The notes below the pieces were generated by a model, which saw nothing but the letters and a program-made list of their open reading frames with translations, ran no database searches and was not told where the DNA came from. Shown here one piece after another: positions 1 to 7,501 of a DNA stretch of 7,501 nt. Source of the stretch: a virus (Duplodnaviria; Heunggongvirae; Uroviricota; Caudoviricetes); IMG/VR virus record IMGVR_UViG_2609460344_000017; one strand, 5' to 3'. The translations under genes were made by a program, and so were the position numbers. How positions within the stretch are numbered: the stretch's first letter is position 1; every line of letters starts with the position of its first letter.

Positions 1-396
1 GCTCCCTTTCCGGCACGTCTCATTGCCGTATCACTTCCTCCCGAAAAAGCATTAATCAGTAAAACCCGACTGCTCAGCGAGAATCGTCGAAAAGGACGAG
101 TAGTTCAGGCGGAAACGCTGGAAGCAGCGGGCCATGTGCTATTGCTAACATCATTACCGGAAGATGAATATTCAGCAGAGCAAGTGGCTGATTGTTACCG
201 TCTGCGATGGCAAATTGAACTGGCTTTTAAGCGGCTCAAAAGTTTGCTGCACCTGGATGCTTTGCGTGCAAAGGAACCTGAACTCGCGAAAGCGTGGATA
301 TTTGCTAATCTACTCGCCGCATTTTTAATTGACGACATAATCCAGCCATCGCTGGATTCCCCCCCCAGAAGTGCCGGATCCGAAAAGAAGAACTAA
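1..396 (+). CDS. insL: IS4-family DDE transposase (IS186 InsL-like), C-terminal ~131 codons; 5' end cut by the window edge
   Basis: Frame 1 has no stop from base 1 to TAA at 394-396. The translation carries the IS4-family YREK signature Y-x2-R-x3-E-x6-K (YRLRWQIELAFKRLK). The C-terminus ...PRSAGSEKKN matches what I recall of InsL. Confidence 0.85.
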   Translation, partial: APFPARLIAVSLPPEKALISKTRLLSENRRKGRVVQAETLEAAGHVLLLTSLPEDEYSAEQVADCYRLRWQIELAFKRLKSLLHLDALRAKEPELAKAWIFANLLAAFLIDDIIQPSLDSPPRSAGSEKKN

Positions 397-544
397 CTCG
401 TTGTGGAGAATAACAAAAATGGTCATCTGGAGCTTACAGGTGGCCATTCGTGGGACAGTATCCCTGACAGCCTACAAAACGCAATTGAAGAACGCGAGGC
501 ATCGTCTTAACGAGGCACCGAGGCGTCGCATTCTTCAGATGGTT

Positions 545-567
545 CAACCCTTAAGTTAGCGCTTATG
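545..567. repeat. Terminal inverted repeat of IS186 (right end)
   Basis: Exact 23-mer CAACCCTTAAGTTAGCGCTTATG, 149 bp downstream of the transposase stop. The partner copy would lie outside the window. Confidence 0.7.
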
Positions 568-589
568 GGATTCTCCCCCGCCTGGTCTC

Positions 590-745
590 TTACTCCTCAG
601 GTTCGTAAGCTGTGAAGACAGCGACCTCCGTCTGGCCGGTTCGGATTCGTACCTCGCAGAGGTCTTTCCTCGTTACCAGTGCCGTCACTATGACGGTTAA
701 ACAGATGACGATCAGGGCGATTAACATCGCCTTTTGCTGCTTCAT
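590..745 (-). CDS. hokD: Hok/Gef family type I toxin (51 aa), HokD/HokC-like
   Basis: ATG at 745-743, stop at 592-590. Translation MKQQKAMLIALIVICLTVIVTALVTRKDLCEVRIRTGQTEVAVFTAYEPEE has a single transmembrane helix and the conserved RKDLCEV...TGQTEVAVF core of Hok/Gef proteins. An AAGGAGAAG ribosome-binding site lies upstream. The paralog assignment is from memory and uncertain; the family call is firm. Confidence 0.88.
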   Translation of the reverse strand: MKQQKAMLIALIVICLTVIVTALVTRKDLCEVRIRTGQTEVAVFTAYEPEE

Positions 746-802
746 AGCCTGCTTCTCCTTGCCTTTCGGCACGTAAGAGGCTAACCTACATGTGCAAAGC
801 AT
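590..802 (-). CDS. mok-like leader reading frame (70 aa) in frame with and ending at the hok stop
   Basis: In-frame ATG at 802-800, 19 codons upstream of the hok start. This matches the way chromosomal mok frames are annotated in E. coli hok loci (recalled, not searched). In this family mok translation is required for hok translation and is the target of sok. Confidence 0.55.
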   Translation of the reverse strand: MLCTCRLASYVPKGKEKQAMKQQKAMLIALIVICLTVIVTALVTRKDLCEVRIRTGQTEVAVFTAYEPEE

Positions 803-848
803 GAAATTGGCCTCAGATTAATGTTAAGCGTCTTGCCGGACGCGTAAT
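794..848 (+). ncRNA. Putative Sok antisense RNA
   Basis: On the strand opposite hok, overlapping the mok start. Candidate sigma70 promoter TTGCCT (759-764), 17-bp spacer, TAACCT (782-787), placing the start near 794. A GC hairpin GCGTC-ttgccg-GACGC lies at 828-843. Position and length are by analogy to sok genes; the 3' end is not well defined. Confidence 0.4.
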
Positions 849-921
849 GTTAACTGGGGCTTTTCTCTATCTGCCTTTTGGTGTTCATGCCTGAGGCAGA
901 TAGCCTCAAGCACCCGCAGTA

Positions 922-950
922 ATTCTAACTATCCAATAGATCAATGCCAA
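922..950 (-). promoter_or_regulatory. Candidate promoter for the hok/mok mRNA
   Basis: On the minus strand: -35 TTGGCA (reverse complement of 945-950), 17-bp spacer, -10 TAGAAT (reverse complement of 922-927). This gives a leader of about 110 nt before the mok start, typical for hok mRNAs. Confidence 0.3.
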
Positions 951-1302
951 CTTCTTTTCCTGCAACATCTCTCATCAGAAGTGACCCAAATTCATCCAAT
1001 CAGCACAAAAGAAACATTTAAAGCGTGAATGCTACCGAACGTTCATTTCAATTACATCGTTTTGATTTTTAACAGTTTTCACCTCAACAAATCAAATGGC
1101 ATTAGCATTCATCATGGAAGAAAGACTGATAAAAATGATCATTTTCAATGACTTATGATCACACCGGGTATTGCCAAGTCATTCCTTTTACGCCAGGATA
1201 CCCACAAGTGAGTAGTCGAGGAGAGTTTGCCAATTTTTGCGATATAAATTTCAATGTCCGAAGAACCATTAATTGTTAATTGATTCTGTATAAGGTATTA
1301 AC

Positions 1303-2400
1303 ATGACAATTTCATATATTCCTATTCTGAAAGCGAAACGTTCTGAGTTATCAGCTTTATCGCAGCTATCCATTGAAAAGAAATCAAAAATTTTGCCATT
1401 ACTCGAAATTGAACCAGTGCCAATTGACCCTGATTCAGGTATTGCCTTAAAGAGTTATAACGAGACTCTTATAGAGTTCGGAAAGAAAGTCTCAAAATCT
1501 TGCTCAGATATGCAAGGTGTTTATATTGATGGATTATTAATTGAAGAGCATTTTATTTCTCCTGAAGATCATTACCCTATAATAAATGCGGTTAATCAAG
1601 TTAGAGATATGGGGATAAGAGTTATTCCTGTCAGTTCACCAACTCGCCCATCTAACTATAAAAGAGCGATTGATGAATTAATGCAGAATGAAATATGCTT
1701 GAGATTAACCACGTTAGATCTGGTTAACCCACAATTAATAACGCATTACATTAATCATCTGGGAATTCCTTTATCAAATATTGATATAATTATTGACTTA
1801 AGAGATGAGTTAACCGAGGATAAAATTAATTCCGGCGAACTATATACTTTGGCAATGGGATTGATAAACAATCTGGCGCACCTCAATGAATACAGAAAAG
1901 TGATTCTTTCTGGGGGTTCATTTCCTACAGATCTCAGTGATATTTCTGTTGGTCTATATTCTCAACCTCGAATCGAGTGGATTTTATGGCAGAGTTTAAT
2001 GAATAGAAAAGAACTTGCCAGAAATGTGATTTATAGTGATTATGGAGTACAGCACCCCGACTTTAATAGGCTTTCGACGCGATTCCCTAGCGTATCTGCC
2101 AGCGTCAGATACTCTGGAGATAATGACTTTTGGGTATTTCGAGGAAGAGTAGCTAATCGCTTTGGTTATGAACAATATGGTAAACATAGTGAGGATATTC
2201 TTGCTCATCGAGAATATTCAGGGCCTACATTCTGTGCGGGAGATAGAGACATAGAATATTATGCAAACGAGTATCAAGCCTACAAAGCCAATCCCTCTGG
2301 TAACTATAAATTTGGTAGCCCAGAGGTATGGCGTAGGATTGGGCAAAACCATCACATAACTAAGGTTGTTGAGCAACTCGCCACTCTTTACGGGCTTTAA
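1303..2400 (+). CDS. Hypothetical 365-aa protein in an AT-rich island; possibly Beta-protein (PF14350) / sce7725-like, unverified
   Basis: ATG at 1303 with AAGG ribosome-binding site 7 nt upstream; uninterrupted 1098-nt ORF. AT-rich codon usage distinct from the flanks. No Walker, HxH, HEPN or other catalytic motif recognised. The N-terminus MTISYIPILKAKRSELSAL reminds me of Beta-family proteins (recollection only). Confidence 0.8.
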   Translation: MTISYIPILKAKRSELSALSQLSIEKKSKILPLLEIEPVPIDPDSGIALKSYNETLIEFGKKVSKSCSDMQGVYIDGLLIEEHFISPEDHYPIINAVNQVRDMGIRVIPVSSPTRPSNYKRAIDELMQNEICLRLTTLDLVNPQLITHYINHLGIPLSNIDIIIDLRDELTEDKINSGELYTLAMGLINNLAHLNEYRKVILSGGSFPTDLSDISVGLYSQPRIEWILWQSLMNRKELARNVIYSDYGVQHPDFNRLSTRFPSVSASVRYSGDNDFWVFRGRVANRFGYEQYGKHSEDILAHREYSGPTFCAGDRDIEYYANEYQAYKANPSGNYKFGSPEVWRRIGQNHHITKVVEQLATLYGL

Positions 2401-2938
2401 GTTTAACTCGAACAGCTTCACGAAGCTCGCCAACATCCATACTATTGGCGAGTTTTGACCATAAGACGCGTTTAGGTTTATTTTTCAAATTCTGTAGCTC
2501 CCCTACATCACTTAATAGGGAAAGCAATTCATCTTTCCAAAGAAGCATTGTTAAGGAAAGTTTGTCCACTTGTGGATTCAACTTGCTAGTTCGAATTGTT
2601 TTTAAATGGATACCTTGCCGTGCACCTTGCGTAACTTGCTTTATCCCCCACCATGATGGAACTATGCTTAAAGCATCATAAAGATGGCAATCAGAGACAA
2701 CCAAAGTTACTTTATCCATCACTGATGAGTAATGTTGCACCTGCGCTGGTAATCTGAGCAAGTTATCACTCTTGCTCTTCAACTCATAACCATGTATAAG
2801 CCCATTGATCACTGCTATATCAGCTCTGCTAGCCCCTAGATTCATCGTAAACTCATCAATGATTAGGGTGTCAGGATCTTTATGATGATCTCTCAGAATC
2901 TTGGCATGCACAGCCTTTCTTACATCAATGTCTCTCAT
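2360..2938 (-). CDS. 192-aa PD-(D/E)xK-type (RecB/restriction-like) nuclease-fold protein; possibly sce7726-like, unverified
   Basis: ATG at 2938-2936, stop at 2362-2360. Translation contains IIDEF ... SRADIAVINGLIHGYELKS, i.e. acidic residue, then hydrophobic-strand Asp, then E-x-K about 12 residues later, the classic PD-(D/E)xK arrangement. The ribosome-binding site is weak. Its 3' end overlaps the 3' end of the 365-aa gene by 41 bp. Confidence 0.75.
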   Translation of the reverse strand: MRDIDVRKAVHAKILRDHHKDPDTLIIDEFTMNLGASRADIAVINGLIHGYELKSKSDNLLRLPAQVQHYSSVMDKVTLVVSDCHLYDALSIVPSWWGIKQVTQGARQGIHLKTIRTSKLNPQVDKLSLTMLLWKDELLSLLSDVGELQNLKNKPKRVLWSKLANSMDVGELREAVRVKLKARKEWRVAQQP

Positions 2939-2970
2939 ACCATAGTTGCGCTTTCATCGACTCTCTCAAG

Positions 2971-2989
2971 CCATGATTCTATATCATGG
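2971..2989. promoter_or_regulatory. Perfect 7-bp inverted repeat CCATGAT-N5-ATCATGG upstream of the 192-aa gene (candidate operator)
   Basis: Exact palindromic arms at 2971-2977 and 2983-2989, 33-51 bp upstream of the start codon at 2938. Confidence 0.3.
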
Positions 2990-3243
2990 TTCGCATGAAT
3001 GCCATTTGATATGACCAGTGGTTAAACATTGCACAGAAAAGTGGATGTGTATTTTAACAAAAGCAATGACGGCTAACCATGTTGGTATGTCGATAAAATG
3101 TTTCAACGTAAGCATTATCTGTTCCGCCCTTTCAGACGGCCTCCTGATGTTCTGAGGGTGCAGAATCCCTCCGGTTAAGGATTTAATAAAAATCGTTTCT
3201 GATTTAAATCTTCAGTATTTAGTTGTTAGTCGGTTTATAGCCT

Positions 3244-3555
3244 TTATGCTTCGGCCTTATTTCTCAGCCATACACAAACCGGGCCATCTTCGGTGTCATG
3301 TATTGAACCAATAAACCATCCATTGCCCTCTGGTCGTTCCGGTTCCCATGCAGAAATATCAGCATCACACGCATCAAGGTCAGCACATCCTTCATCTCTG
3401 AAGCAGAGGACGTATTGAAGATTATTTTCCTCCATCCAGGCGTTAAACTCTTCCGTTGAAATATATTCCCGACCGTCACAGAATTTTTCATATTCAGGAT
3501 GCGTCCAGCAGCCATATTCATCACGTACTACTGGTATTTCTTTAATTTCATTCAT
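3244..3555 (-). CDS. Hypothetical prophage protein (103 aa, acidic, Trp/Cys-containing)
   Basis: ATG at 3555-3553 with GGGAGA ribosome-binding site 7 nt upstream. Overlaps the stop of the upstream gene by 8 bp, suggesting translational coupling. Last gene of the minus-strand early operon. Confidence 0.7.
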   Translation of the reverse strand: MNEIKEIPVVRDEYGCWTHPEYEKFCDGREYISTEEFNAWMEENNLQYVLCFRDEGCADLDACDADISAWEPERPEGNGWFIGSIHDTEDGPVCVWLRNKAEA

Positions 3556-3802
3556 TTCTGTTCTCCCACGTTTTCAGACTTTCACCACAGAACGGACAAA
3601 ATGAAACCCGAACTGGTAATTTAGAAAATTCACCGGAACGCAACATCACAAAATCAGGACCGCGAGTTAAACTCTCATTCCAGATTTTGTATATCAGCAG
3701 ACCTTTTCGCATCGTGTATTCAGCATCATGCTCAAGGGACTTTGCCAGTGCTGCACATGGTTCTATCTTGTTGCCATTAACCTGGCATTTTGATTCACTC
3801 AC
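3548..3802 (-). CDS. Hypothetical prophage protein (84 aa) with one CPFC motif
   Basis: GTG start at 3802-3800 preceded by a strong GAGGAGG ribosome-binding site at 7 nt. The start overlaps the TGA stop of the upstream gene (GTGA). Confidence 0.65.
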   Translation of the reverse strand: MSESKCQVNGNKIEPCAALAKSLEHDAEYTMRKGLLIYKIWNESLTRGPDFVMLRSGEFSKLPVRVSFCPFCGESLKTWENRNE

Positions 3803-4221
3803 CGCACCACCTCCTCAAAATTCCCCTGATAAAACGCCAGTACGCGCTGCATAACTTCGCTCTTCCGGCACTCGAGACAGATTATGTTCAGACGCCTGTC
3901 GTAGCGGCGTATTTCGCCATCTGGTAATGACCAGATAAGGTCCGGATCAACCGCAGATGGTTTCTTCAGCTTTGCCCTTGAGAGTTTTTTGCGGGCATTT
4001 TGCCAGTCTTTACGAGCCTGTTCAGACGGGAATAACCCGTAGCCAGAATTGTATACATCGCCACTGGCAACCAGCTCTCTGGCCAGAACGCTCATCAGAT
4101 ATCTTGTTGCCCCAGTTTTAGTTTCCAGTTGTCGTAACGTCTCGCGCCCACTCTGGCGTACGAGTTCAACAACCTGCCCTTTAATTTTTTCCCGCTCTTC
4201 TTGTGTAAAAACTTTTGCCAC
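3799..4221 (-). CDS. Hypothetical prophage protein (140 aa, basic)
   Basis: GTG start at 4221-4219 preceded by AGGAGG at 4 nt. Lies 37 bp downstream of the replication gene stop; in an operon with the two following genes. Confidence 0.65.
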   Translation of the reverse strand: MAKVFTQEEREKIKGQVVELVRQSGRETLRQLETKTGATRYLMSVLARELVASGDVYNSGYGLFPSEQARKDWQNARKKLSRAKLKKPSAVDPDLIWSLPDGEIRRYDRRLNIICLECRKSEVMQRVLAFYQGNFEEVVR

Positions 4222-4258
4222 AAGCCCTCCTGAAAATTACCCCATGACCTGAAATCTG

Positions 4259-5329
4259 TTACCCTCTGAATCCCGGCGGAATTTCGGTGTCCGGTTCAGA
4301 AATATGATTAACACAACGCTGGTTGTTCGTGCCGCTTACCGGGAGCAACCAGGGGTTTTCAAAATTCCGGTCCGGTCCAAAAAACGTCGTCGCTCGCTGA
4401 ACAAATTCCGTTCCCGTTTTCCCGGTAGCCGCCAAGTATCTTGCGTAACGCCTCACGCCATCCAGCATGGCCTCTGGTGGCACCCCCTCGCGTAATCTGG
4501 CCTTCCAGGCACTGAAAGCGGATTTCTTCGGGTTTGCCCCAGCACGCAACGGGTACTCCCGCCAGACCTGTTCGAACACATCCGGATAATCCACTCGTCC
4601 CACAGACTGCCCGGTGTTTTCCGGGACTACCCGATCGGCTTCCCGCTGAATGGCGGAATCGGCTTCGGGCTGCTGCAGTTGGTGTGATTGCTCCGGCCTT
4701 GCGGTCATCACCTGCTGCACAGCGCCCGAATCGGCTTTCAGCGCATACGCTGAATCGGCTTCCGGTGTCGTGCCTGCTGGCTGACCAAGATTGACGGTCT
4801 GAACATCCCCTGCCTGGTTCGTGGCGTTTTTTACGCCATGGACCATAGTGTTTTGATCTTCTTGATCTGTATCTTTATCTGTATCTTTATCTGTCGTGAC
4901 TCGTCGTGACATGTGCGTGACATTTCGTGACGCGCCGTGACAATCGCCATTTTGTTCCCGCTTTCTTTCCCTCTCTCGCTGCGCCCTCTTGCGCTCTGCA
5001 GGAGATTTTGCGGTTTGCGAAATATTGCCGTTGTCCTCTTTAAGCACCTGGCGTTTTTCCCATCCAGTGATTAAATCACCATCAAGTACCCGCCCCTGCA
5101 TCGTCTGCAAAATTGAATCAATTACCTCTTCTGTCACGTCGAGCGCACTTGCCAAATCTTCTGTCGTGACATCAATGTGACCTCGCGTGACATTTCGTGA
5201 CGCGCTCACCAGGAGGTGGATATACACTGCCATCACTGTTGCAATTGGCTGCCCTGACACCCTGGCAATTGTTCGCCACTTAGGGTCATTTGGCATGTCA
5301 TGCCATAATCTGAGCCAGGCGTTAGCCAT
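4259..5329 (-). CDS. Phage replication initiation / replisome-organizer protein (lambda O-like architecture), 356 aa
   Basis: ATG at 5329-5327 preceded by AGAGGTGA; an alternative in-frame GTG is at 5335. N-terminal domain, a charged low-complexity linker (TDKDTDKDTDQED, ERKRAQRERERKRE) and a C-terminal domain ending ...FEQVWREYP...KKSAFSAWKARL, which resembles conserved phage replication-protein C-termini. Iteron arrays sit inside the gene. Confidence 0.8.
   Translation of the reverse strand: MANAWLRLWHDMPNDPKWRTIARVSGQPIATVMAVYIHLLVSASRNVTRGHIDVTTEDLASALDVTEEVIDSILQTMQGRVLDGDLITGWEKRQVLKEDNGNISQTAKSPAERKRAQRERERKREQNGDCHGASRNVTHMSRRVTTDKDTDKDTDQEDQNTMVHGVKNATNQAGDVQTVNLGQPAGTTPEADSAYALKADSGAVQQVMTARPEQSHQLQQPEADSAIQREADRVVPENTGQSVGRVDYPDVFEQVWREYPLRAGANPKKSAFSAWKARLREGVPPEAMLDGVRRYARYLAATGKTGTEFVQRATTFFGPDRNFENPWLLPVSGTNNQRCVNHISEPDTEIPPGFRG
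4864..4894. repeat. AT-rich tandem repeat (GTATCTTTATCT x2 plus partial copies) adjacent to the iterons
   Basis: Exact 12-mer at 4869-4880 and 4881-4892. Encodes the TDKDTDKD linker on the minus strand. Candidate DNA-unwinding element. Confidence 0.5.
4891..4941. repeat. Iteron array 1: five tandem 10/11-bp repeats with core CGTGAC (candidate ori)
   Basis: CGTGAC at 4895, 4905, 4916, 4926 and 4936, giving a helical-turn spacing of 10-11 bp, inside the replication gene. Confidence 0.6.
5161..5201. repeat. Iteron array 2: four 10/11-bp repeats with core (C/T)GTGAC
   Basis: Cores at 5165, 5176, 5186 and 5196, plus an inverted copy GTCACG at 5133-5138. Shares exact segments CTGTCGTGAC and CATTTCGTGACGCGC with array 1. 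Confidence 0.5.
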
Positions 5330-5400
5330 ACTCACCTCTTTTGATACCGAATCTTTTTACTCACAAATTGCCGGAAGTGATCCGGTATGAATATTGCGAG

Positions 5401-5826
5401 TCAATGCACAGCCACAATATTTCCTGCAGGGCCACCACGATTCATCTGGTTGAAACCAGCGATCGCCACTGCGACAAAATCATCAGCGTCTCTCACCAGT
5501 CGTTCCCGCGTCTCCACCAGCTCCCGAAAATAAGCTGAACTGTGGCTGCGCATTCTGGCCACCAGCAAAGGTGGCATTGCCTTTTCGATCGCTGGTAACA
5601 ACGCCTGAATTTTTTCAACTGCATCAGGGGTGTCTTTCTCTACCCAGCGGAAAATTTTCTGGGTATTGCGAGCCAGGGCTTCCGGATGGCTGTCGTCATA
5701 CAGTTCTGGGAACGTCATACCCAACTCAAAATAAGCCTGGGTTATTCCAGCTGCTGGAACTTTCTCACCATCAGGATATGCCCAGGCATTCATCGCCATG
5801 CGGATGTGCTCATGTTTGATTTTCAT
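5401..5826 (-). CDS. ydaT: YdaT-like protein (Rac prophage ydaT homolog), 141 aa
   Basis: ATG at 5826-5824 with AAGAGG ribosome-binding site. Size, sequence (MKIKHEHIRMAMNAWAYPDGEK...) and position immediately downstream of a ydaS-like gene match Rac prophage YdaT as I recall it. Confidence 0.8.
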   Translation of the reverse strand: MKIKHEHIRMAMNAWAYPDGEKVPAAGITQAYFELGMTFPELYDDSHPEALARNTQKIFRWVEKDTPDAVEKIQALLPAIEKAMPPLLVARMRSHSSAYFRELVETRERLVRDADDFVAVAIAGFNQMNRGGPAGNIVAVH

Positions 5827-6133
5827 GAATCATTTGCCTCTTGATGCTTCGGGTATGATCGTTTTCGTCATTTGGTTGCTTCATCGACATATTCTGCGAA
5901 TAACATGACGAGCGTCGTAAGTATGTCCAATCAACATCAGGACGAAGTTCTTCACACAGGACACCACCTTTTGTTGCTCGTTCAATCGCAGGACATCTCT
6001 CAGCAGGCAACTGACGTACACCTTTGATCCATTGATTTACGCTTGGAGGAGATACACCTAAAAGCCTAGCCATTGCTGATTGCCCACCGACAACAGCACA
6101 AGCTCGTTTGAATGAATAGTTATCTTTTTTCAT
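5810..6133 (-). CDS. ydaS: YdaS-like Cro-type helix-turn-helix protein, 107 aa
   Basis: Preferred start is ATG at 6133-6131 with GGAG about 10 nt upstream; the ORF track's upstream start at 6154 lacks a ribosome-binding site. Helix-turn-helix region AMARLLGVSPPSVNQWIKG. Divergent from the repressor gene. Overlaps the ydaT-like start by 17 bp. Confidence 0.8.
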   Translation of the reverse strand: MKKDNYSFKRACAVVGGQSAMARLLGVSPPSVNQWIKGVRQLPAERCPAIERATKGGVLCEELRPDVDWTYLRRSSCYSQNMSMKQPNDENDHTRSIKRQMIHENQT

Positions 6134-6160
6134 CGAATGAACTCCAAAAAACACACAATA

Positions 6161-6228
6161 ATATTAGGCTTAGCCTAATGCGATTGTCAATAGGCTATGC
6201 CTAACGCTTCGAGAGTAGGGATTGCCTA
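6161..6228. promoter_or_regulatory. OR-like tripartite operator with a PR-like promoter for ydaS-ydaT, between the divergent racR-like and ydaS-like genes
   Basis: Three inverted repeats of the form TAGGC-N3-GCCTA: 6164-6178 (TTAGGC-TTA-GCCTAA, perfect), 6191-6203 (perfect 5-bp arms) and 6216-6228 (4 of 5). Centres are 25-26 bp apart. A minus-strand promoter, -35 TTGACA (reverse complement of 6185-6190) and -10 TAATAT (reverse complement of 6161-6166), overlaps site 1. Confidence 0.55.
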
Positions 6229-6257
6229 ACGCGATGCGCATAGGAGACTATTAAGCA

Positions 6258-6734
6258 ATGCTTAGTGGTAAAGACTTAGGCCGAGCGATAGAGCAGGCCA
6301 TCAACAAAAAAATTGCATCAGGAGCCGTCAAATCAAAGGCGGAAATCGCACGTCATTTCAAAGTCCAACCACCATCAATCCATGACTGGATTAAGAAAGG
6401 TTCGATAAGTAAAGACAAACTTCCAGAACTATGGCGTTTCTTTTCTGATGTGGTTGGTCCAGAGCATTGGGGGCTTAACGAATACCCCATACCAACCCCA
6501 TCCACTTCAGATACAAAAAGTGAACTTTTAGACATAAACAGCCTTTATCAAGCCGCCTCTGATGAAAAAAGAGCAATTGTGGCTTTCCTCTTATCTGGAA
6601 ATGCTACGGAGCCTAGTTGGGTTGATCATGACGTTCGCGCCTACATTGCCGCAATGGAAATGAAGGTAGCTAACTATCTGAAAAATCAAGAATCAAAACG
6701 GAAAAGCCAGAACATCACCAAGACAGGAACTTAA
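6258..6734 (+). CDS. racR: RacR-like prophage repressor (XRE-type helix-turn-helix), 158 aa
   Basis: ATG at 6258 with TAGGAGA ribosome-binding site 10 nt upstream. Helix-turn-helix region SKAEIARHFKVQPPSIHDWIKKG. Divergent from ydaS-ydaT, as in the Rac immunity region. Confidence 0.8.
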   Translation: MLSGKDLGRAIEQAINKKIASGAVKSKAEIARHFKVQPPSIHDWIKKGSISKDKLPELWRFFSDVVGPEHWGLNEYPIPTPSTSDTKSELLDINSLYQAASDEKRAIVAFLLSGNATEPSWVDHDVRAYIAAMEMKVANYLKNQESKRKSQNITKTGT

Positions 6735-6748
6735 ACTTATATGGTCCG

Positions 6749-6778
6749 ACGGGAAATTCCTAGTTCCCGTTAGTTAAC
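6749..6778 (+). terminator. Candidate intrinsic terminator after the racR-like gene
   Basis: Perfect 7-bp stem ACGGGAA / TTCCCGT (6749-6755 and 6764-6770) with an 8-nt loop, followed by TAGTTAACTC. The tail is only moderately U-rich. Confidence 0.35.
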
Positions 6779-6830
6779 TCCTACTACCTCTCCCACAAAC
6801 CATCACCTATTAGGTCGCACCCAAATCATT

Positions 6831-6871
6831 AGGCATAGCCTATTGACAAGCAATTAGGCATTTCCTATAGT
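6831..6871 (+). promoter_or_regulatory. OL/PL-like element: consensus sigma70 promoter overlapped by two operator repeats
   Basis: -35 TTGACA (6843-6848), 17-bp spacer, -10 TATAGT (6866-6871). Operator-type repeats TAGGC-ATA-GCCTA (6831-6843) and TAGGC-ATT-TCCTA (6855-6867) overlap the -35 and spacer/-10. Confidence 0.5.
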
Positions 6872-7052
6872 TTTCCCATACCAACCCATCCCGTCCCACA
6901 CAATACAGGGCAATACCTAGAGTTACCCGGCAGTGGTCAGGGATTAAGTAGCCAGCCCGAGGCGTATGAACATGACGGCGGGAACACTTTGTATAACAGC
7001 GCAGCAGGTTTTTAGTTCCGCTACCCCAGCGTTAAGGGGAAATGAGGTCAGC

Positions 7053-7205
7053 ATGGATACTATCGAGCTTGGCAACAACGAATCTCTGGTATGTGGCGTG
7101 TTTCCCAATCAGGACGGCACGTTTACCGCGATGACGTATACCAAAAGTAAAACGTTTAAAACCGAAGCTGCCGCGCATCGCTGGTTAGCCAGAAACGCTA
7201 ACTGA
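7053..7205 (+). CDS. Small prophage protein (50 aa), YdaF-like by position
   Basis: ATG at 7053 with GAGG ribosome-binding site 5 nt upstream; stop at 7203-7205. Lies downstream of the PL-like promoter on the same strand as racR. An in-frame ATG at 6966 would give 79 aa but has a poorly spaced ribosome-binding site. Confidence 0.5.
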   Translation: MDTIELGNNESLVCGVFPNQDGTFTAMTYTKSKTFKTEAAAHRWLARNAN

Positions 7206-7501
7206 TTAGCGCCAGTAAAAACAGGTTTCCACAGGTTAATTTACCCTGAAAAGTCAGGGCATAACACGAAAGCGCACGGCGAGATCCCTTTGCATATAAG
7301 TCTTGTCGTTAAATTTCTTCGACCGTGCGCTTCTGGTTGTGGCAATCCGCGAAATGGCGCGGCGGTAAGTATGGCGGGGGTATTTCTTCCCCCGTTGAGG
7401 ACACCGGGTTGTCAGGGTGACCATACGCTTAAGTGACAACCCCGCTGCAACGCCCTCTGTTATCAATTTTCTGGTGACGTTTGGCGGTATCAGTTTTACT
7501 C

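Follow-up and report, generated by a model that had tools for sequence, protein, structure and literature searches.

A variable accessory slot between DUF977 and hok/sok in a Rac/Qin-type lambdoid prophage carries a convergent beta/cII gene pair with relatives in gop-beta-cII and PD-lambda-2

The early region of a lambdoid prophage, present in a 7,501-nucleotide stretch of the virus record IMGVR_UViG_2609460344_000017 (Caudoviricetes; the whole stretch is referred to here as the window), contains a block that is considerably richer in A+T than the sequence on either side. This raises the questions of whether the block is a separately acquired cargo, where its borders lie, and what its genes do. 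The AT-rich block is a variable accessory slot of a Rac/Qin-type lambdoid prophage, situated between the DUF977 gene and the hok/sok locus, and in the window it holds a cassette of two convergent genes, beta and an sce7726/P4-cII-like gene. It is probable that the contents of this slot are swapped by recombination and that the beta/cII module is a prophage-borne anti-phage system which behaves like a toxin-antitoxin or abortive infection system. The features on which the argument depends are as follows (GC, G+C content; GC3, GC at third codon positions; aa, amino acids; ORF, open reading frame).

590-915, minus strand: hok/mok/sok type I toxin-antitoxin locus, the left flank (51.6% GC)
922-950, minus strand: hok promoter-like site
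928-3113, no strand: beta/cII cassette, 2186 bp, 37.9% GC, bounded by homology breakpoints against relatives L008, L010, L011, L012 and L013
1303-2400, plus strand: beta gene, 365 aa, Beta_protein family, transcribed in opposition to the prophage early operon
2360-2400, no strand: convergent 3'-end overlap of beta and the cII-like gene, 41 bp, from ORF coordinates
2360-2938, minus strand: sce7726/P4-cII-like gene, 192 aa
2976-3005, minus strand: promoter-like site upstream of the cII-like gene
3114-3243, minus strand: conserved linker between orf103 and the cargo, the flank at which the cassette recombines on its right
3244-3555, minus strand: orf103, early-operon gene annotated without a function (43.3% GC, GC3 0.34)
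3548-3802, minus strand: orf84, early-operon gene annotated without a function (42.4% GC, GC3 0.38)
3799-4221, minus strand: DUF977 gene (Pfam DUF977, 1.2e-29; 49.9% GC), homologous in all relatives

The initial annotation, made by eye, had placed a sharp AT-rich island at 960-3243, and the compositional contrast proved to be real. GC is 38.0% across 960-3243 compared with 49.3% in 1-959 and 48.4% in 3244-7501. The best three-segment likelihood model has breaks at 920 and 3695 with a log-likelihood ratio (LLR) of 40.1, while no LLR exceeded 16.6 among 200 sequences shuffled by mononucleotide or 21.0 among 200 shuffled in 100-nt blocks, so that the discontinuity found by calculating GC along the window is significant. 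The proposed left edge was roughly correct, lying about 35 bp too far inside the block: GC drops abruptly from 50.2% to 34.7% across 927 (400-nt windows either side), and the compositional edge falls at 920-927, close to the hok mRNA 5' end on its upstream side. The right edge was misplaced by about 450-550 bp. Across 3243 the same 400-nt windows show a small step, from 39.3% to 43.0%, and GC returns to around 50% only at DUF977 (~3700-3800), the first backbone gene of host-like GC and the outer right flank of the variable slot. Position 3243 was rejected as an edge in either the compositional or the recombinational sense, the GC step there being weak and the homology junctions lying elsewhere. 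Within the block, beta has the lowest GC (37.2%, GC3 0.30), followed by the sce7726/cII-like gene (40.9%, GC3 0.36). The whole variable slot of ~928-3823, defined below from homology, has a GC of 39.1% and agrees with the compositional block at 920-3694.

The borders of the slot were defined by aligning relatives, taken as contigs encoding an identical orf103 or an identical HokD, to the window. In every relative the left homology break lies at 927/928, which is 12 nt upstream of the 5' end predicted for the hok mRNA by the Rfam sok model. This junction divides the hok promoter-like site (10 of 12 matches in the scan), leaving the -10 hexamer TAGAAT (927-922) in the conserved flank and the -35 hexamer TTGGCA (950-945) in the cargo. 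Each unrelated cargo keeps a GCCAAC, GCAAAC or GCCAAT hexamer 18 nt beyond the junction, which suggests that the hok promoter has been preserved through successive exchanges. The right junctions are nested. Relatives that keep orf103 resume homology at 3113/3114 (L008, L011, L012) or at 3124 (L010, L013), and the 3113/3114 junction corresponds to the ATG (3115-3113, minus strand) of whichever gene leads the cargo, the 130-bp linker and its ribosome-binding site being shared. The outer junction is seen in L102 and L106-L108, where homology is not regained until 3824, at the 3' end of DUF977, and where orf84 and orf103 have been replaced; these two genes are backbone relative to the beta/cII cassette, yet are themselves exchanged in some relatives. 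Additional mosaic breaks are revealed by partial matches to the right flank. The left break at 927/928 and the right breaks at 3113/3114 or ~3823 thus delimit a slot of ~928-3823, within which the cassette of 928-3113 is nested.

Neither terminal nor direct repeats are present at 927/928 and 3113/3114, the cassette edges carry no insertion signature, and no recombinase gene was detected in the cassette among its ORFs or in Pfam, PADLOC and NCBIfam scans. Exchange by homologous recombination at shared flanks, rather than transposition, fits this sequence pattern. Cargo would be swapped on the left within the hok promoter at 927/928, and on the right at the 3113/3114 linker or at the 3' end of DUF977.

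Part of the linker has a distribution of its own. A 64-bp sub-segment (3124-3187, minus strand) is found at ~92-95% identity downstream of diverse orf103-like genes. Of the 2350 E. coli genomes matched by a 3114-3802 query, many match in this sub-segment, often in no other piece. A 6-bp hairpin capped by a GAAA tetraloop (CCGUCU-GAAA-GGGCGG) is present in it, and the 5' arm reads CCGCCC or CCGUCC in relatives, turning U-G pairs into C-G pairs. The linker as a whole (3110-3245, minus strand) folds no better than shuffled sequence (z = -0.44). The sub-segment could be a recombination linker, or a regulatory hairpin preceding the ribosome-binding site of the next gene. An unannotated 43-aa ORF (2984-3115, minus strand; MLTLKHFIDIPTWLAVIAFVKIHIHF...) with a hydrophobic stretch begins at the conserved ribosome-binding site and ATG. 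Its start is the position at which the first cargo gene starts in other prophages, and it may be a true small protein or a residual start codon.

At least eight different contents were found between the same flanks among related prophages. Where orf103 is identical, the slot holds beta/cII, an antiterminator-Q-like gene with three opposite-strand genes, or DUF7167/DUF551 sets; where HokD is identical, it holds relBE-flxA, PDC-S33, PDC-S39, a 932-aa protein or uncharacterised genes. The antiterminator-Q-like gene (173 aa) and the three-gene operon on the opposite strand (363, 142 and 213 aa) have a GC of 36.0% and occur in 14 complete genomes; this cargo occupies 6445-9113 of L008, is also present in L011 and L012, and lies at 1436809-1439642 of E. 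coli EPEC E2348/69 (NC_011601.1). The three opposite-strand genes match no Pfam or PADLOC family, and their operon is a candidate for an uncharacterised defence or toxin-antitoxin system. The small phage gene sets (DUF7167, DUF551, DUF4014) have a GC of 41-47%, and pieces of them are found in thousands of genomes. Further cargos are relB-relE-flxA, as in Qin; a 341-aa RelA_SpoT protein corresponding to the PADLOC candidate PDC-S33 (1e-118); a 595-aa protein corresponding to PDC-S39 (8e-103); the 932-aa protein, with weak Cap4-nuclease/LmuA-like (E 5.7e-07) and AAA ATPase (AAA_22) matches and a SEC-C match; and a pair of uncharacterised opposite-strand genes at 33% GC. The slot is therefore an accessory slot that may be enriched in defence- and toxin-antitoxin-like cargo, and is not exclusively a defence site: several cargos have no match or consist of ordinary phage genes, and PDC-S33 and PDC-S39 are candidate systems.

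The beta/cII cassette is present, at 97% identity or above, in 93 of 5426 complete E. coli genomes and is always chromosomal, while 240 genomes have the right flank (3114-3802) at a coverage of 80% or more. The initial annotation had interpreted the block as separately acquired cargo in a defence hotspot of Rac-like prophages. The rarity of the cassette and the Rac/Qin-like relatives, which keep the flanks and hold different cargo, bear out acquisition, whereas the junctions are not at 960 and 3243, an insertion signature is absent, and the slot is not purely one for defence.

The product of the beta gene is a full-length member of PF14350 Beta_protein (3.8e-52). It is best matched by the PADLOC models for component C of the PD-lambda-2 defence system (PD-Lambda-2_C, 1.8e-41 and 1.7e-38); its match to the PADLOC 'beta' model of the P4 type is weak (2e-4, residues 4-40), and it is 23% identical to P4 beta (BLASTP, 1e-08). 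The protein is predicted to be a TIM barrel. In the predicted structure, beta-strands and alpha-helices alternate around a barrel whose strands carry conserved polar residues at their C-terminal ends, and a comparison of conservation with the model places invariant K, E, D and R residues at or just past the strand ends. Foldseek comparison with the PDB returned generic TIM barrels only, from which no enzyme family could be assigned, and sequence profile searches of the PDB with the beta and cII families gave no meaningful matches.

The convergent partner belongs to NCBIfam sce7726_fam (1.7e-56), matches the PADLOC 'cll' model (2.4e-28), is 28% identical to P4 cII, and PF26915 is listed for an identical protein. 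It is predicted to adopt a PD-(D/E)xK restriction-endonuclease-like fold with the invariant residues E29...D40...E52-x-K54 characteristic of that superfamily. The genes had already been labelled 'beta' and 'CII phage-like protein' by the authors describing Rac-SA53, an inducible phage which carries the same beta/cII block, so the genes themselves are not new. We found no account in the literature of the mechanism of the sce7726, sce7725 or PF14350/Beta_protein families, or of Rac-SA53.

The cassette appears to contain these two genes and no others. A tblastn search of the window with P4 Gop gave a 10-residue match (E 3.9), and there was no match in 80 related loci. No ORF of 50 aa or more lies upstream of beta on the same strand, the 375 bp upstream being without a credible ORF, and only unsupported ORFs of 20-43 aa occur in 916-1302 and 2939-3243. 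PD-Lambda-2_A had no match among the five window proteins scanned (beta, cII-like, orf103, orf84 and DUF977) and no suitably placed ORF, and no ORF of the PD-Lambda-2 component B type (Xre HTH-M78 peptidase) lies upstream of beta in the window.

Control sequences in the cassette are less distinct. The promoter-like site upstream of the cII-like gene consists of ATGGCA, an 18-nt spacer and TAGAAT (9 of 12 matches in the scan); it is weak evidence, since the total of promoter sites is no higher than in shuffles. No terminator was found between the convergent genes, and the predicted folding of the overlap region (2330-2430) is no stronger than that of shuffled sequence (z = -0.91). A 16-nt inverted repeat (1088-1103, CAAATCAAATGGCATT; 2998-3013, AATGCCATTTGATATG; 94% complementary) places the motif ATCAAATGGCATT upstream of beta and of the cII-like gene alike, in the sense orientation each time. 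Its second copy overlaps the -35 of the promoter-like site, and on a rough estimate ~0.2 such repeats are expected by chance. The repeat may be a shared operator.

To place the pair in a wider context, one genome per species was scanned with a cII-family profile, giving 80 loci that span Proteobacteria, Firmicutes, Acidobacteria, Chloroflexi, Actinobacteria, candidate phyla and others. Where there was room for a partner, beta lay directly downstream on the opposite strand in 77 of 78 cII loci. All 79 pairs (the window and P4 included) are convergent and 76 of the 79 overlap at their 3' ends, with a median overlap of 53 nt and extremes of a 167-nt overlap and a 39-nt gap. Among the Enterobacterales, which supply the closest relatives (60-81% protein identity), DNA homology extends over 1300-2938 alone, precisely the span of the two genes; the cassette parts 928-1299 and 2939-3113 have no DNA homology in the other Enterobacterales cassettes, and no third conserved gene was found in these relatives. 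In 60 of 73 loci from other taxa the pair has a lower GC than the sequence around it (median difference 5.3 points), and the compositional contrast in the window is thus a trait of the family.

The settings of the pair elsewhere link it to defence. In 12-13 loci an Xre HTH-M78 peptidase gene matching PD-Lambda-2_B (3e-84, and up to 6e-159) lies just upstream of beta, and PD-Lambda-2_A was also found upstream in 8 of 10 tested loci of this type. These eight (L033, L055, L060, L070, L071, L086, L088 and L092), from diverse phyla, carry all three PD-lambda-2 components (A, B and the beta-like C) and, after them, a cII-like gene that is convergent and overlaps at its 3' end. Other neighbours of the pair include integrases, P4-type primases, MzaA, KwaB, dCTPase, dGTPase, DrmD, BrxH, HmaA and a type III methyltransferase. 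A second beta/cII cassette, 54% identical to that of the window, is found in another type of E. coli prophage (L098-L100), where the genes (206 aa and 355 aa) are again convergent and overlapping and are placed between the Rz lysis gene and terminase Nu1, a different lambdoid hotspot. In the temperate Gordonia phages Powerball (L097, genes 32 and 33) and DumpsterDude, a Beta_protein gene and a convergent overlapping gene, the latter known by its annotation 'exonuclease' alone, lie between an integrase and a HicAB toxin-antitoxin pair.

Two published systems guide the functional interpretation. In P4, gop-beta-cII (Rousset et al. 2022; 'gop_beta_cll' in PADLOC and DefenseFinder) protects against lambda and P1, and Gop is toxic when beta is lacking (PMC9122126). 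The gop-beta-cII of ECOR59 causes cell death upon expression of the phage accessory protein orf184 (bioRxiv 10.1101/2023.04.06.535777). In PD-lambda-2, the toxin is not neutralised by the beta-like component C, yet C is required for defence (PMC9519451). By analogy, the window cassette probably has a defence or abortive infection phenotype. It carries the beta/cII core alone and would act as a self-contained two-gene module without the toxin and regulator genes of the published systems. The PD-(D/E)xK nuclease would be the effector, and beta, as an enzyme or by binding, would restrain it until infection or activate it on infection. Convergent overlapping transcription might tie the expression levels of the two genes together through antisense coupling.

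Several observations weigh against this interpretation. Published phage-resistance data concern only the three-gene versions of P4 and ECOR59, the two-gene form being known here from sequence. The demonstrated toxin is Gop in P4 and component B in PD-lambda-2, both of which are absent from the window, and PADLOC gives component-level matches only, which we read as no complete system being called. Identity to the P4 proteins is low. The promoter and terminator counts in the window are not above those of shuffled sequence. Because the loci were found via cII, they show that cII is nearly always accompanied by beta and not the reverse. Finally, the slot also carries ordinary phage genes (one cargo at 47% GC), so position alone is no proof of defence.

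The alternative that survives best, and one we regard as unlikely, is that the cassette is a prophage addiction or stabilisation module with no direct anti-phage role, in which the nuclease is a toxin, beta its antidote, and loss of the pair kills the cell. The proximity of the slot to hok/sok, the presence of relBE in the slot of Qin-type relatives and the tight linkage of the pair across phyla would all suit such a module, as would the description of P4 beta as toxin-neutralising (Ghisotti 1990, as cited in PMC9122126). Against this, both experimentally studied beta-containing systems give phage resistance and many defence genes are among the neighbours of the cassette elsewhere; toxin-antitoxin and abortive infection roles can, moreover, coexist.

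It is improbable that the two genes serve the phage's own DNA metabolism, as an MmcB-like recombination or repair function accessory to the lytic cycle. The cII-like gene does follow the early operon directly and shares its strand, so that read-through from the early promoter is possible, and one homologue was named 'DNA repair protein MmcB-like' by its source while that of the Gordonia phages is annotated as an exonuclease. However, beta is transcribed against the early operon, many copies occur outside phages beside defence genes, and the P4 beta-cII region is among the non-essential genes (PMC9122126). The presence of the cassette in 93 genomes compared with 240 for the right flank indicates that the pair is dispensable in these prophages as well.

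A restriction-modification-like pair, in which beta modifies DNA in the manner of the transglycosylases TGT and DpdA and the cII-like nuclease cuts unmodified incoming DNA, has slightly less in its favour again. Convergent gene pairs are common in type II restriction-modification systems, the predicted restriction-endonuclease fold of the partner retains its catalytic motif intact, and the strand ends of beta bear conserved polar residues placed as in enzyme active sites. The structural scores of beta with TGT and DpdA are, however, equalled by dozens of unrelated TIM barrels and correspond to 9-10% identity, beta has no invariant cysteine for a TGT-type zinc site, and the publications on gop-beta-cII and PD-lambda-2 indicate abortive infection. 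That there is no separate cargo, low GC being ordinary variation of the backbone, is very improbable: orf103, orf84 and the cro and repressor genes are also AT-rich (cro and repressor, 43% GC), but the homology breaks are sharp with unrelated sequences between identical flanks, the GC step is significant, and both the rarity of the cassette and its AT-richness relative to its flanks in most loci of other taxa speak against it.

A bolder version of the anti-phage reading, which we put forward tentatively as a possibility, is that the beta/cII pair is an autonomous two-gene immune module distributed across phyla and the functional core of both published systems. Beta would then be a nucleotide or nucleic-acid enzyme gating the nuclease, sensing or amplification would be added in particular lineages by Gop or by the HigB-like protein with the Xre-peptidase, antisense coupling would come from the overlap, and the Rac/Qin slot would be a previously undescribed defence hotspot. 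If this were true, the slot would be a place to mine for new systems, of which the three-gene operon of EPEC E2348/69 may be an example.

For annotation, the block can be treated as an ordinary low-GC accessory island in a prophage, which is a classical finding. Within the literature that could be searched, three aspects appear to be new: the repeated use of the precisely bounded DUF977-hok slot for cargo, the occurrence of the module as a free-standing pair of genes, and its near-universal convergent overlap together with the link to PD-lambda-2. Rac/Qin-type prophages abound in E. coli, with more than 2000 complete genomes matching part of the flank, and the slot can be mined for new defence genes. 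The beta/cII pair circulates free of the toxin genes by which the two published systems are defined, and the three-component description of PD-lambda-2, in the text consulted, omits the partner nuclease that accompanies such loci in nature. A convergent 3' overlap retained across phyla is an unusual conserved architecture and offers a testable hypothesis on the coupling of the two genes.

On its minus strand the window as a whole reads as the early-right region of a lambdoid prophage; the gene order was deduced from ORFs and Pfam, NCBIfam and Rfam matches. Orf103 and orf84 gave no Pfam, PADLOC or NCBIfam match. The other features are listed below.

1-566, plus strand: right end of an IS4-family element, with a transposase C-terminus ORF at 136-396 (NCBIfam transpos_IS4_1, 1.1e-22)
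590-745, minus strand: hokD (Pfam HOK_GEF, 2.7e-23), with the mok frame reaching 802
740-915, minus strand: hok mRNA 5' region and sok complement (Rfam sok RF01794, 119.8 bits, E 1.2e-27)
4259-5335, minus strand: replisome organizer
5401-5826, minus strand: YdaT-like gene
5810-6154, minus strand: cro/YdaS-like gene
6258-6734, plus strand: repressor

The IS4-family end sits downstream of hok, in the flank and outside the island, and homology to most relatives begins at 567. L008 has the same IS4-family insertion (with a 370-aa DDE_Tnp_1 transposase) and a different slot cargo, from which the insertion and the exchange of cargo appear to be independent events. In the Qin-type relatives L101 and L104 the coding part of hok (window 567-759) is ~3.3 kb apart from the leader/sok region (744-927), and the intervening sequence carries relE, relB, a 101-aa gene and flxA; the relBE block is thus located inside the hok leader, whereas hok/sok of the window is intact. 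The 5' part of the DicF small RNA is found at 7469-7501 (plus strand; Rfam RF00039, 42.6 bits, E 7e-07), scoring under the gathering threshold because the window ends inside it, and fits the neighbourhood of a Qin/Rac-type immunity region. Relatives in complete E. coli genomes are prophages integrated beside potC, which carry kil, dicB, ydfC and repressors of the racR or LexA type.

Comparison with known systems begins with the slot itself. It resembles the moron and defence hotspots of temperate phages (such as those of P2 and P4 and the Rz-cos region of lambda) in its conserved flanks, in low-GC cargos that exclude one another, in opposite-strand genes with promoter-like sites, and in a mixture of defence, toxin-antitoxin and uncharacterised contents. 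It differs in its position between the replication module (DUF977) and hok/sok, with the left junction inside the hok promoter. A limited literature search found no paper describing a DUF977-hok slot, and a 2026 paper on the P2/P4 hotspots mentions neither gop nor this slot. The Qin relBE-hokD region of E. coli K-12 has relB, relE and flxA in the cargo position relative to hokD; there, the insertion lies at the equivalent of window 744-759 within the hok leader, so that hokD is ~3.3 kb from sok and the leader, in contrast to the undivided locus of the window.

The P4 gop-beta-cII locus shares with the window a Beta_protein and an sce7726/cII gene in the same convergent order (in P4, gop, beta, then cII on the opposite strand), and is likewise a non-essential cargo of high A+T that occupies a variable hotspot in a temperate mobile element, the P4 beta-cII region having a GC of 35.6% against 53.3% for its flanks. 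It differs in having gop, in the low identity of its proteins (23% for beta and 28% for cII), in the length of cII (264 aa in P4, 192 aa in the window), in the spacing of the genes (27 bp apart with an annotated terminator in P4, overlapping by 41 bp in the window), and in its host element, which is a satellite in P4 and a lambdoid prophage here. PD-lambda-2 (Vassallo et al. 2022) has the closer beta, since the window protein matches PD-Lambda-2_C at 1.8e-41 and the P4 'beta' model at 2e-4, and natural A-B-C loci have the same convergent cII-like gene next to them in 8 of the 10 tested. Its components A (HigB-like) and B (the Xre HTH-M78 peptidase, which is the toxic part) are absent from the window, and the published text consulted gives three components without a cII-like gene (PMC9519451). 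The window thus has the two shared components in the characteristic arrangement and is neither a gop-beta-cII system, for want of gop, nor a PD-lambda-2 system, for want of A and B. The reading best supported by these sequence comparisons is that the beta/cII pair represents the shared conserved core of P4 gop-beta-cII and PD-lambda-2.

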